Position numbers and translations under genes: made by a program. Under the pieces are notes generated by a model. It made no database searches, had not been told where the DNA came from, and saw only the letters and a list, made by a program, of their open reading frames with translations. This document shows, piece after piece, positions 11,816 to 15,200 of a DNA stretch of 64,000 nt. Every line of letters begins with the position of its first letter. Positions within the stretch are counted from its first letter, which is position 1. Source of the stretch: an uncultured Gemmatimonadales bacterium (GTDB lineage: Bacteria > Gemmatimonadota > Gemmatimonadetes > Gemmatimonadales > GWC2-71-9); the NCBI GenBank assembly GCA_963751925.1, contig CAVVWJ010000002.1, positions 1,702,560-1,766,559 on the forward strand, read 5' to 3'.

Positions 11816-12978
11816 TTCGTAATCTGCTGCAGTGCCTCGATCACCGCATCCATATCTTCCCCGGTCCCGACCGAGATCCGCAGGCATTGCGCCAGCTCGG
11901 GTGAGCCGGAGACATCACGCACCAGGATGCCGTGTTCGTTGAGAAGTCGCTGAAACAGGTCCTTAGCAGGCAGCTCGCGAGATCGAATGAGCACGAAGTT
12001 GGCGGCGGTCGGGTACACGACAAGGCCGGATATCATCCGCAGGCGGGGGAGGAATCGCTCTCGCACCGAAATCACCTCCCGAGTCCGTTCCTCGAGCAGA
12101 GAGGCATGGCGCAGGGCGGTACGTGCGGCAGCAAGCGTCACCAGATTCACATTGTAGGGAAGCTTGGCTTTGGCGATCTCGCGGGCGACACCCGGGTTGG
12201 CCAGAGCCAGTCCGAACCGGAGCCCCGCCAAACCGAGCGCCTTGGAAAAGGTACGCAGCACCACCAGCCGGGACCAACGACCCAGGAGAGGAATGGCCGT
12301 TGGCCCGCCGAAATCCTGGTAGGCCTCGTCGCAGATCACCAGTGCCTCGGTCTCGGTGAGAACCCGCTCGACGTCTCCCTCGGCCAGAGCCGAACCGGTC
12401 GGATTATTGGGCGAGTTGAGGACGATCACCCGGGCACCTTCCCGCCGAGCTGTGTAGATCAGCTGATCGACGTCGAATACAAAATTTTTCCCCAGCGGCA
12501 CCGGCAGGTACACACCACCGAGGACGGACGTCAACAAGCGGTACAGAGAAAAGGTAGGTGACGGCGCCACCACCCGATCGCCCGCACCCAGTGTCACCGC
12601 CAGAGAGGCCTGGATCAGCTCGTTAGAGCCGTTCCCGACCAGTACTCCATCGGGTCTCCAGCCGTAATAGTCCGCCAGCGCAACGATCAGATCCTGCGGT
12701 GTGAACTCCGGATAGCGCTGCCACTCCGAACGGGAACACTGCTCCAGGACCTCGCGCTTCAGCTCTGCAGGAAAGTCGTAAGGGCTCTCATTCTGATTGA
12801 GCTTGTGTCGTGCAGAAAGGGCCGCGAGGCTGTAGCCCGGCTGGGCCCGTACCGATGGCTTGATCAGCGCGAGGCCCTCGGCGGAACGCAGCGGATCAGC
12901 CGCTGGGCCGGTGACTTTCTCGATGGAAGGGCCGGCGGGTTGAGCGGGAGATTGCGGCGGAGTTGGCTGCCGGGTCAA
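11812..12978 (-). CDS. hisC: Histidinol-phosphate aminotransferase HisC
   Basis: Class-II aminotransferase: LNQNESPYDFP, NSPNNPTG, TFSKALGLAGLRFG (PLP Lys). TTG 12978 overlaps the upstream stop. The true start may be further downstream. Confidence 0.85.
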   Translation of the reverse strand: MTRQPTPPQSPAQPAGPSIEKVTGPAADPLRSAEGLALIKPSVRAQPGYSLAALSARHKLNQNESPYDFPAELKREVLEQCSRSEWQRYPEFTPQDLIVALADYYGWRPDGVLVGNGSNELIQASLAVTLGAGDRVVAPSPTFSLYRLLTSVLGGVYLPVPLGKNFVFDVDQLIYTARREGARVIVLNSPNNPTGSALAEGDVERVLTETEALVICDEAYQDFGGPTAIPLLGRWSRLVVLRTFSKALGLAGLRFGLALANPGVAREIAKAKLPYNVNLVTLAAARTALRHASLLEERTREVISVRERFLPRLRMISGLVVYPTAANFVLIRSRELPAKDLFQRLLNEHGILVRDVSGSPELAQCLRISVGTGEDMDAVIEALQQITK

Positions 12979-15200
12979 GCGCGACGGCGGCCAAGCACCG
13001 CCTCGATCCGGGCGGTCAGCGAGCGGGCTCGAAATGGTTTGGTCACGAAGTCGTCTGCGCCAAGTTCGAACACCCGCACCTCGTTGTCCTCGTCGCCCTT
13101 GGCGGTGAGAACCATGACGGGGATCTCCCGGGTGGCGGGACGGGAGCGAAGCTGGGCCAGGACGCCGTAGCCATCGAGACCGGGAAGATTGAGATCGAGA
13201 ATGATGACGTCAGGCGCGAATCGATCCACTTGGTCCAGCGCCTGAATGCCGTCTCGAGCCTCTGCCACCTTATAGCCCTCGCGCTGCAGCAGGTCTTTCA
13301 TCACCCGGCGCAGCTGATCCTCGTCTTCGACCAGCAACACACAAGCGCCCTGTCCGCGGCCCTCCCCGAGAGCGGCAGGAGCGGTAGGCTCCTCCACCAG
13401 GTCCATGTCGAAGTCGGTGGCGACGGCTACACGTGGGTGGGGGCCGCTCACCCGCGGCGTCGCCTCTGCTGGACGCGAGCTCCGCGAGGGGGCCACAGGC
13501 GCCTTCGCGGTGTCCTCCGCTGGCGGATCGGTAACACGCAGCAGCTCTTCGAGCGTGGACTCTCCCGACAACACGTGGCGGAGTCCGCTGGCCCAGAGTG
13601 AGCGCATTCCCGCGGCTCGCGCGGCTTCAGCAATCTTCTCGGCGGTGGCCCCTTCTCCGATGCGGCGCTCGAGCTCGGGATTCATCGTCAGAACCTCCAC
13701 GATGCTGAACCGGCCACGATACCCCGTCATGGAGCATTCGGCACACCCCACCGCGGTGAAGAGCTTTGCGTCTGGAGCGATGAAGCGCTTGAACCGATCG
13801 CTGACTTCGTCCGTCATGGGGATACGGCAATGGGGACAGATTCTCCGCATCAGGCGCTGCGCCACCACGCCCCGAAGCGCAGGGGCGATCTTGTACGCCT
13901 CCATGCCCATATCTACCAGACGGGTAACGGCGTTGGGAGCGTCGTTGGTGTGCAGCGTGGACAGCACCAGGTGTCCGGTCAATGAAGCCTGAAGGGCGAT
14001 CTGAGCCGTTTCCTTGTCGCGGATCTCACCCACCAGCACCACATCAGGGTCCTGCCGCAAAATCGACCGCAGCGCTGAGGCGAACGTGAGTCCCGCCTTC
14101 TCATTCACCTGAACCTGAACGATGTTCTTGCCCAGCCGGTATTCGACCGGATCCTCGACCGTGACGATGTTGGTGCCTTCACCCTGTACCACCCGGAGCG
14201 ACGAGTACAGGGTCGTCGTCTTACCCGAGCCGGTTGGGCCGGTGACCAGAATGATCCCTTCCTTGTTGCCAAGCAGCGACTTGATAGCCGACTGCTCGTC
14301 GTCCGCCAGTCCCAACGATTCGAGCGCGAGAGTGGTGGCCTTCTGGTTGAGAATGCGGATGACGACCTTTTCCCCGAGCGACGCCGGCAACGTCGACACC
14401 CGTAGATCGATCGGCTCGCCGTTGACCGAGATCCGGGCCCGGCCGTCCTGTGGCCGAAGCCGATCGGCAATGTCGAGCCCCGACATGATCTTGATGCGCG
14501 AGATGAGCGGTGTTCCCGCGCTGCGCGGGATCTTCATGGCCTGGCGAAGCACGCCATCGATGCGGTACCGCACCACCACACCGCCTTCGATCGGCTCCAC
14601 GTGGATGTCACTGGCGCGGTTTGACACGCCGTCGGCGATCATCATGTCAACCAGCTTGAGGATCGGGCGCTGACTGGCTTGTTCGGCACTGGCACCGCTG
14701 CCGTCTTCCACCTCTTCCTTGATCTGCTCGACCTCGAAGTCACTGCCGATGCCCTCGAGCAGACGCGAGACGATGGTGTCGGTCTCACGGTAGAGCTCGT
14801 CCAGCTTCTCGCGGATCTTGGATGGGGACGCCAGCAGCATGCGAACCTCGCGACCGGTCGCGAAGGCCAGCATTTTCTCGGCATCGATGTCAAAAGGGTT
14901 GGCGGTGGCAACCTCGAGGAAGGAGTCGGTTTGCCGGACGGGAACCACGTTGAACCGGCGAGCCACCTGCTCCGGAATGCTCGTAATCAGCTTGGCGTCA
15001 GGCTTGGCGATGTCCGCCACCTGAAACCGAAACCGTTTGGCGATGGCGCCGAGGATCTGCTCGTCGCTGGCCAGCTTCCGTTGAACCATCACTTCCCAGA
15101 GCGACACAGCAGGGCCCGCTTCTTCGCGCAGCGCCTTGAGGGCATCTGCGGACAGAAGAGTCTCGATGGAAGGCACCAACCATTCATCGGTGAACTGCAT
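12975..15200 (-). CDS. GspE/PilB-family secretion ATPase with C-terminal response-regulator receiver domain
   Basis: T2SSE_N-like N-domain. Walker A GPTGSGKTTT, Walker B/Asp box VVLVGEIRD, His box GHLVLSTLHTN. Tetra-Cys CPHC...CAEC. Pro/Ala linker, then REC (about 12978-13343): VLLVEDED...DVIILDLNLPGLDG...TAKGD...TKPF. Confidence 0.85.
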   Translation of the reverse strand: MQFTDEWLVPSIETLLSADALKALREEAGPAVSLWEVMVQRKLASDEQILGAIAKRFRFQVADIAKPDAKLITSIPEQVARRFNVVPVRQTDSFLEVATANPFDIDAEKMLAFATGREVRMLLASPSKIREKLDELYRETDTIVSRLLEGIGSDFEVEQIKEEVEDGSGASAEQASQRPILKLVDMMIADGVSNRASDIHVEPIEGGVVVRYRIDGVLRQAMKIPRSAGTPLISRIKIMSGLDIADRLRPQDGRARISVNGEPIDLRVSTLPASLGEKVVIRILNQKATTLALESLGLADDEQSAIKSLLGNKEGIILVTGPTGSGKTTTLYSSLRVVQGEGTNIVTVEDPVEYRLGKNIVQVQVNEKAGLTFASALRSILRQDPDVVLVGEIRDKETAQIALQASLTGHLVLSTLHTNDAPNAVTRLVDMGMEAYKIAPALRGVVAQRLMRRICPHCRIPMTDEVSDRFKRFIAPDAKLFTAVGCAECSMTGYRGRFSIVEVLTMNPELERRIGEGATAEKIAEAARAAGMRSLWASGLRHVLSGESTLEELLRVTDPPAEDTAKAPVAPSRSSRPAEATPRVSGPHPRVAVATDFDMDLVEEPTAPAALGEGRGQGACVLLVEDEDQLRRVMKDLLQREGYKVAEARDGIQALDQVDRFAPDVIILDLNLPGLDGYGVLAQLRSRPATREIPVMVLTAKGDEDNEVRVFELGADDFVTKPFRARSLTARIEAVLGRRRA

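Follow-up and report, generated by a model that had tools for sequence, protein, structure and literature searches.

The 64,000-nucleotide stretch of an uncultured Gemmatimonadales genome analysed here (hereafter the window) encodes, from an ATG start, a 741-residue protein. From N to C terminus it consists of an MshEN-type domain, the complete ATPase core of the T2SSE family, a Pro/Ala linker predicted to be unstructured, and a receiver (REC) domain of canonical type. By sequence, the protein is an extension-type ATPase of the PilB/GspE class, and its gene, which is real and under purifying selection, is present in hundreds of Gemmatimonadales species. It represents a cis-receiver form of the PilB/GspE motor, a fusion that is widespread and has already been annotated automatically. 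We give even chances to the interpretation that this extension ATPase is gated by phosphorylation and serves filament components encoded at a distance, a neighbouring GAF–PAS kinase being the likely phosphodonor.

All three Pfam families concerned (MshEN, T2SSE and Response_reg) are matched above their cut-offs, in agreement with the original prediction, which was made from the letters and a list of open reading frames (ORFs) alone, with no database searches, and which read the protein as a T2SSE_N-like domain, an ATPase core, a linker and a REC domain. Every motif named there is present, including Walker A, the Asp and His boxes, the tetracysteine motif, the EDED acidic pocket and the phospho-acceptor context, and the REC profile match, well above its threshold, falls where the domain had been placed (Table 1). 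The Asp box reads VEDPVE, together with DPDVVLVGEIRD, and the His box reads TGHLVLSTLHTND. In an alignment of 201 orthologous sequences, K327, E349, E392, H410 and H417, which include the Walker A lysine, the catalytic glutamate and both histidines, are invariant. An AlphaFold2 model built from 70 sequences (mean predicted local distance difference test score, pLDDT, 84.7) provides a confident bilobed ATPase, with pLDDT ~90 in the core and the N1 domain also modelled, and matches the bilobed fold of N2D and the C-terminal domain (CTD) seen in solved PilB, GspE and PilF structures. The predicted template-modelling score of 0.59 fits mobile domains.

Sequence scores against PDB entries are highest for PilB from Myxococcus and Geobacter (399–408 bits), followed by GspE (370 bits) and PilF (361 bits), with PilT at only ~120 bits. 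The alignment with Myxococcus xanthus PilB (408 bits) covers residues 13–559, N-terminal extension included, and its start at residue 13 indicates an N-terminus of the longer PilB/MshE kind. Structural comparison of the core using Foldseek gave a template-modelling (TM) score of 0.85 and a root-mean-square deviation of 3.3 Å to both Geobacter PilB (5TSH) and Thermus PilF (5OIU), and a TM score of 0.75 to Vibrio EpsE. Assignment to either the PilB or the GspE orthologue group was considered and rejected: the NCBIfam models gave 558 bits for GspE (TIGR02533, residues 73–557; cut-off 630.25) and 533 bits for PilB (TIGR02538; cut-off 675.65), and the protein is therefore filed in the PilB/GspE class but in neither group. 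PilT and PilU are poorer matches, with a PilT family score of 177.5 bits against a cut-off of 319.1 and an N1/MshEN domain present; the tetracysteine zinc motif in the CTD is, moreover, absent from PilT. On the core placement that the original prediction had proposed as a check, the protein belongs to the PilB/GspE class, far from PilT, with PilB and GspE nearly tied by sequence, profile and fold.

The receiver is the best-conserved region of the protein, with a mean top-residue frequency of 0.93, compared with 0.89 for the ATPase core, 0.78 for residues 1–65 and 0.52 for the linker. It carries the EDED acidic pocket at positions 625–628 and D669 within ILDLNLPG; D626, D669, T699, F718 and K721 are invariant across the alignment, and position 625 is either Glu or Asp. 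In the AlphaFold2 model the domain forms five strand–helix units, i.e. a (βα)5 fold, with pLDDT ~95, and D669, T699 and K721 lie at the ends of β3, β4 and β5, respectively. Both the invariant residues and the canonical fold bear out the earlier description of an intact receiver. By comparison, linker residues 566–613 are modelled without secondary structure, at pLDDT values below 50. When the REC domains of 113 distant fused homologues were aligned with that of the query, the acceptor Asp was found in 103 of the 114 sequences, the Lys in 106, and Thr or Ser in 106. The receiver's best scores were to OmpR/PhoB- and PleD-type receivers.

The MshEN receptor for cyclic di-GMP (c-di-GMP) is characterized by two tandem 24-residue motifs of the form RLGxx(L/V/I)(L/V/I)xxG(L/V/I)(L/V/I)xxxxLxxxLxxQ (PMC5013675), and neither is retained here, as the original prediction had judged by eye. 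Motif I begins with D5-E6-W7 and ends with A28 instead of Gln, while motif II begins with S33-L34-W35, has K42 in place of Gly and ends with R56. Trp replaces the motif Gly in both halves (W7 in 200 and W35 in all 201 sequences). The helices of the module appear in the AlphaFold2 model, at residues 6–12, 18–26, 34–40 and 46–57. The 'xxWL' signature recurs in a Gemmatimonadales paralogue and in many distant fused homologues, 102 of the 113 of which lack any RLG motif. Judging from the motif, c-di-GMP binding appears to have been lost. The window also encodes a REC protein with an HD-GYP (HD_5) domain (28265-29350, minus strand), likely a phosphorylation-controlled c-di-GMP phosphodiesterase, which indicates that the organism uses c-di-GMP even though its ATPase has lost the motif.

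An exact look-up in the assembly index returned no record of the 741-residue window protein, and at least 120 clusters at 90% identity (from JGI, ENA, NCBI and Logan) contain relatives that are 81–98% identical to it over 100% coverage, with the same three Pfam domains. Scanning one genome per GTDB species revealed at least 560 stretches encoding relatives; the best 80 of these are full-length and 65–85% identical, and nearly all are labelled Gemmatimonadales or Gemmatimonadota. Over the 34 loci that share all genes, the ATPase averages 76.5% identity to its window counterpart, compared with 68% for HisC, 81% for TrpE and 84% for HisF. A few labels are anomalous: the full Gemmatimonadales synteny block occurs in metagenome-assembled genomes (MAGs) labelled Ilumatobacteraceae (L036) and Bacillota (L070), and one MAG (L027 and L066) holds two divergent copies of the whole locus, likely reflecting binning contamination or mixed strains.

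More distant relatives were collected in a HMMER pass over 1.84 billion representatives at 50% identity, from which the best 150 matches were analysed. A core followed by REC, as judged by phmmer with the query's domains, occurs in 113 of these 150, at 38–48% identity to the window protein and with G+C contents of 39–70%; JGI already names such proteins 'PilB-like protein/CheY-like'. The original prediction had called the architecture uncommon, a description overturned by these counts, by the hundreds of Gemmatimonadales species that carry it, and by another lineage in which the fused form is the ordinary first gene of a full operon resembling those of pili or type II secretion systems (T2SS). 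Other C-terminal additions in the family include NUDIX, GAF, TPR, and a zinc ribbon plus REC with long tails. The best homologues also comprise proteins of ~1000 residues with two complete T2SSE cores in tandem (P0128, P0129, P0131, P0133, P0135, P0136, P0141, P0147, P0154, P0157, P0162, P0174, P0189 and P0192), covalent dimers that would make a hexamer out of three chains. We found no experimental study of a receiver-fused PilB-like ATPase in the literature. A 2024 review of PilB control nowhere mentions a fused (cis) receiver (PMC11656802), and Wang et al. (2016) list REC among the domains that co-occur with MshEN (PMC5013675).

The genomic context of fused homologues outside the order links this architecture to filament assembly. 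P0149, which is ~40% identical to the window protein, opens an operon that encodes a prepilin peptidase, PilC, three prepilins, PilM, PilO, a secretin and a PilT-like ATPase, and that adjoins an exopolysaccharide cluster; the core–REC architecture therefore serves real type IV filament machines. Two further fused homologues differ in setting: P0272 comes after a Che-like cluster, and P0158 is orphaned.

Within Gemmatimonadales, a second receiver-fused paralogue (type B, with the window-type protein as type A) is physically linked to pilin genes. The gene for P0130, 48% identical to the window protein, is followed by those for a stand-alone REC, an unknown protein with weak T2SSM-like similarity, and a clear prepilin (MTRRRGFTFIEIL...). 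This prepilin passes both TIGR02532 and Pfam N_methyl and occurs in at least 120 clusters at 79–100% identity; several prepilins 79–93% identical to the L088 pilin carry the NCBI name Gemmatimonadales. P0130-type proteins are widespread in the order, and the presence of one of them (P0459) at 3.58 Mb of contig_25021 (3,727,537 bp), with a window-type gene near 0.41 Mb of the same contig, establishes that the order has two receiver-fused paralogues. Both paralogues are present on the 3.73-Mb contig CAVWRM010000001.1. A hybrid kinase with CHASE4 and Hpt domains lies near type B. On a syntenic 1.06-Mb contig, the genes for REC, the unknown protein and the pilin occur without type B or any other ATPase. 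No PilC, PilD or secretin was found within 10 kb of the type-B and pilin loci, which suggests that the filament machinery is scattered. In one lineage (L095, 12615-19929), a cluster of multihaem cytochrome, multicopper oxidase and cupredoxin genes lies between the type-B operon and a second pilin pair. The remote partners suggested for the window protein are thus plausible, given highly conserved prepilins at a distant locus; of the components that were to be located elsewhere, the prepilins were found, and PilC/GspF and secretin did not turn up in the ranges searched (the 64-kb window, and ±10 kb of sequence at 82 type-A loci, 5 type-B loci and 2 additional pilin loci).

The window itself offers no such partners, as originally claimed for pilin, PilC/GspF, secretin and PilM-Q genes. 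A Pfam scan of 50 window ORFs detected none of T2SSF, N_methyl, Secretin, PilM/N/O or Peptidase_A24; the genes instead have housekeeping and signalling roles, e.g. his, trpE, glmS/glmM, purD and ubi genes, those for IMP dehydrogenase, permeases and an ECF sigma factor, and the REC–HD-GYP gene. The IMP dehydrogenase gene is bordered by three paralogous genes for amino-acid permeases (48776-55006, minus strand). Two phmmer seed sets, one comprising Escherichia coli GspC-O, HofB/C and PpdD and the other the eleven proteins of the pilus operon L085, yielded matches to ATPase and REC domains and to nothing else, whether run against the window or against 82 related loci, and a prepilin regular expression gave no match in the window. 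A full locus just outside, the circumstance that would have made this an ordinary operon member, is improbable judging from relatives: the window's own left flank is only 13 kb, but no filament genes were found within 10 kb on either side in the 82 related loci. An ecogenomics study of Gemmatimonadota reports type IV pilus genes in all environments except marine ones (PMC10581226), to which we give little weight; its supplementary files are without pil or gsp KEGG Orthology entries, and the claim may be based in part on this very gene. Gemmatimonadetes are left out of the figure in the TXSScan paper.

The genes around type A are strongly conserved among the 80 species loci, for which the synteny counts below use as denominators the loci with enough downstream flank (at least 3 kb for NUDIX and at least 8 kb for the kinase). 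Depending on how it is scored, between 59/67 and 65/68 loci have a gene for a DUF5686-like protein upstream. In the window it is split by a 1-nucleotide frameshift near 16120 into two overlapping ORFs, whose −1 and −2 frames meet at the position of residue 422/423 in the L001 protein, whereas relatives encode a single protein of ~700 residues; either a pseudogene or an assembly error would account for this. On the other side, the ATPase stop codon overlaps the hisC start as TTGA, which holds as far as the sequence shows: the TTG at 12978 is the sole ATG, GTG or TTG start within the first ~100 codons of the hisC frame. One relative has a 36-nucleotide gap here rather than an overlap. The hisC-hisB-hisH and hisF genes are interspersed here in 50 loci; the 15 loci that lack them have a NUDIX ORF that directly adjoins, or overlaps, the stop codon of the ATPase. 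An FHA–GAF–adenylate/guanylate cyclase gene (19524-21137, plus strand) belongs, with trpE and Maf, to a neighbourhood that is conserved in 59 of 82 related loci, a count not corrected for flank length. A 10-bp GC-rich hairpin with a weak T-tract (15235-15261, minus strand) occupies the gap between the DUF5686-like gene and the ATPase; the promoter scan revealed no sigma-70-like sites, and terminator-like sites in the region (8, compared with 5.5 ± 2.3 expected) are not above chance, for which reasons we claim no operon boundary.

Table 1. Coordinates in the window of the receiver-fused ATPase gene, its domains and motifs, and its conserved neighbours, with type-B paralogue operons at other loci
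Feature	Position	Strand	Evidence
Whole gene, PilB/GspE-class ATPase (by sequence) with C-terminal receiver, type A of Gemmatimonadales	12975..15200	-	ORF, Pfam, orthologues
Four-helix N-terminal module, residues 1-65, equivalent to the c-di-GMP-binding half of MshEN; RLG triplets replaced	15006..15200	-	M. xanthus PilB alignment, AlphaFold2
MshEN/N1 domain (PF05157), residues 66-141	14778..15005	-	Pfam 62 bits, cut-off 23
T2SSE ATPase core (N2D and CTD), residues 173-555	13536..14684	-	Pfam 441 bits, E 3.5e-132; Foldseek
Walker A GPTGSGKTTT, residues 321-330	14211..14240	-	K327 invariant, 201/201
Tetracysteine zinc motif, C455, C458, C486, C489	13734..13838	-	All four invariant, 201/201
Pro/Ala-rich linker, residues 556-620	13341..13535	-	Low conservation, predicted unstructured
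Receiver (REC, PF00072), residues 621-733	13002..13340	-	Pfam Response_reg 114 bits, cut-off 30.2, E 5e-33
Codon of D669, predicted phospho-acceptor, end of β3	13194..13196	-	Asp in 201/201 orthologues
TTGA, ATPase stop TGA overlapping hisC start TTG	12975..12978	-	Start-codon inspection
NUDIX hydrolase gene, intact Nudix box, downstream companion	10144..10611	-	Pfam NUDIX 63 bits; 65/65 loci
Hybrid histidine kinase GAF-PAS-HisKA-HATPase_c-REC, no Hpt, convergent	5545..7980	+	Pfam; 46/53 loci
DUF5686-like gene, directly upstream, 73-nucleotide gap	15274..17359	-	Pfam DUF5686 41.5 bits
NosD-like parallel β-helix protein, last gene of the co-directional block	7974..9401	-	NosD 109 bits; 49/53 loci
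Type-B paralogue operons (REC, unknown protein, prepilin)	L094 10001-13780; L088 3317-6990; L095 7931-12605		~48% identity

In the interpretation outlined at the start, the gene product would be a catalytically competent hexameric motor of the extension type, belonging to the PilB/GspE/PilF class within the type IV filament superfamily. Phosphorylation of Asp669 in the C-terminal receiver probably switches it on and off; this receiver would be held on a flexible tether of ~50–60 residues, the ancestral N-terminal c-di-GMP site presumably having been lost. The most likely phosphoryl donor is the conserved hybrid GAF–PAS kinase, already named as a candidate partner in the original prediction and kept as a neighbour throughout most loci (Table 1). 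The motor would act in trans on pilins and a platform encoded elsewhere, as Gemmatimonadales appear to scatter these genes. One plausible route from receiver to motor is phospho-dependent REC–REC dimerisation between neighbouring protomers, suggested by the best scores being to OmpR/PhoB- and PleD-type receivers. Several observations weigh against this interpretation: (i) the ATPase scores under both equivalog cut-offs (GspE, 558 < 630; PilB, 533 < 676); (ii) pilin genes are physically linked to type B, such that type B, and not type A, may be the filament motor; (iii) no PilC/GspF, prepilin peptidase or secretin was found in the Gemmatimonadales ranges searched; (iv) the invariant companions of type A are NUDIX, DUF5686-like and NosD-like proteins, none of which is a known filament part; and (v) the neighbouring hybrid kinase is without Hpt, and Pfam detects no Hpt protein in the window.

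In the main alternative, type B has kept the motor function after a duplication, and type A drives no filament and is a phosphorylation-controlled ATPase of a NUDIX-linked module. The moonlighting regulatory ATPase offered as one option in the original prediction stays a candidate. Type A might then be a signalling ATPase, or might energize another envelope process, perhaps with the DUF5686-like and NosD-like proteins. The NUDIX gene is an obligate companion, downstream in all 65 loci and adjacent to the ATPase wherever the his genes are absent, and the association amounts to a Rosetta-stone link: P0134 and P0155, the closest relatives without REC (49–51% identity), are MshEN–T2SSE–NUDIX fusions in which NUDIX replaces REC. 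Over its full length the window NUDIX protein can be aligned with the C-terminal part of P0155 (E 3e-33, at 37% identity), and the NUDIX-fused gene has the same DUF5686/TrpE/Maf/Dtd neighbourhood (L089 is among these loci). In a rough neighbour-joining tree, drawn from a sample biased to REC-bearing proteins because REC adds to the score, the NUDIX-fused clade is sister to type A and nested in REC-fused lineages of the W type. A NUDIX gene also lies immediately downstream of that for P0126, a 51% identical protein with a degenerate receiver. We assign the NUDIX protein to no subfamily and give it no substrate, its matches all being weak (NudB, 47 bits where the cut-off is 103; Ap4A hydrolase, 32 bits; RppH-like; MutT). 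This alternative gains further from the constancy of the DUF5686-like gene upstream and from pilins that accompany type B and never type A, with both paralogues on one contig; that PilB can act as an exopolysaccharide signalling protein has also been proposed (PMC5544727). Against it, the features specific to a motor are all invariant in type A, among them the zinc motif and also N1/MshEN, the domain through which homologues contact a PilM/GspL-type partner, and at least one pilin locus lacks type B, which leaves type A a candidate motor. The neighbours, moreover, are mostly housekeeping genes (his and trpE), and their adjacency may partly reflect a stable region of the core genome; no NUDIX mechanism is known for this ATPase class, and we found no publication linking NUDIX to PilB. 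On balance, we regard a purely non-motor type A as somewhat unlikely.

It is considerably less probable that types A and B form an antagonistic or condition-specific pair on one machine, replacing PilB and PilT, with each member gated by its own receiver; one might extend and the other retract, or the two might respond to different inputs. Two paralogues of identical architecture do coexist in one genome, near different kinases (the GAF–PAS hybrid for type A and the CHASE4 hybrid with Hpt for type B), and a PilT-type gene was not seen near either. Both paralogues are, however, of the extension type by sequence and carry N1 domains, the PilT family score (177 against 319) points the same way, and type B is missing at one pilin locus. 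The suggestion that the receiver is a pseudo-receiver, unphosphorylated and serving only as a structural or interaction module, is very improbable. Degenerate receivers do occur in the family, as in P0126 (Thr to Pro and Lys to Arg), and the REC of FimX is without the Asp (PMC11656802); yet D626, D669, T699 and K721 are invariant in 201/201 orthologues, the canonical residues are kept in ~90% of the 113 distant fused homologues, and a kinase is a conserved neighbour. An assembly chimera across the REC junction, or a pseudogene, can be dismissed with near certainty even though the assembly is not error-free (the neighbouring DUF5686-like gene is frameshifted), since the intact three-domain protein occurs in at least 120 clusters and 80 species genomes assembled independently by different projects, its key residues are invariant, REC conservation is the highest in the protein, and the gene is under selection.

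A more speculative proposal, and in our estimate a long shot, concerns the N-terminus: the W-type module, whose Trp is found in both Gemmatimonadales paralogues, may be no dead MshEN domain and instead a receptor for another nucleotide, e.g. a dinucleoside polyphosphate, whose level the co-encoded NUDIX protein would set. Two inputs, receiver phosphorylation and a nucleotide under NUDIX control, would then converge on the motor.

Considered as a phosphorylation-gated motor, the window protein can be set against several known systems. It resembles PilB (M. xanthus 3JC8; Geobacter 5TSH/5ZFR) over residues 13–559, with 45% identity in the core and a TM score of 0.85, and shares its Walker A and B motifs, Asp and His boxes and tetracysteine motif. 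It differs from PilB in ~185 extra C-terminal residues (linker and REC), in the replacement of both c-di-GMP half-motifs, in its score under the TIGR02538 cut-off, and in lying away from pilC, pilM-Q and pilins. GspE/EpsE (Vibrio cholerae 1P9R/4KSR; Vibrio vulnificus 4PHT) gives the best NCBIfam score, 46–47% core identity and a TM score of 0.75, and Xanthomonas XpsE is likewise without c-di-GMP-binding residues (PMC5013675); unlike GspE, the window protein has the longer PilB/MshE-type N-terminus and a fused REC, is without a gspC-M operon, and falls below the cut-off of 630. With V. cholerae MshE (5HTL) it shares the N-terminal family PF05157 and the same two-repeat helical module, and differs in having the triplets DEW and SLW, with Ala or Arg in place of the final Gln. 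Relative to MshE, regulation has apparently shifted from the dinucleotide to phosphorylation or another ligand. NtrC-type REC–AAA+ activators provide a precedent for a phosphorylated fused receiver that controls the assembly or activity of a ring ATPase, although they belong to another ATPase superfamily, their receiver is N-terminal rather than C-terminal, and their output is transcription. Other parallels act in trans: the Synechocystis PATAN–REC proteins with PilB1, and Pseudomonas aeruginosa PilG/PilH, are reported to be CheY-like receivers, phosphorylated by kinases, that modulate a pilus extension motor (bioRxiv 10.1101/2021.06.11.447907, PMC11181946, PMC10519157). In the window protein, by contrast, the receiver is covalently tethered to the motor.

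The switching of pilus and T2SS extension ATPases is an active question, to which c-di-GMP binding by MshEN, the PilZ/FimX cofactors and trans-acting response regulators are the known answers. A motor with its own intact receiver would offer a simple system in which to study how phosphorylation gates a PilB-type hexamer. The fusion is widespread and automatically named, and receiver–enzyme fusions are a routine theme, and the surprise is accordingly moderate. Nevertheless, the receiver is under stronger constraint than the ATPase core, in a protein found across a soil-dominant order and many other lineages. The strict ATPase–NUDIX association, evident in both neighbourhood and fusion, is an unexplained and testable lead, and the two receiver-fused paralogues per genome are another. 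If the W-type module does prove to be a nucleotide receptor, it would represent a new second-messenger axis for ATPases of the type IV filament class.

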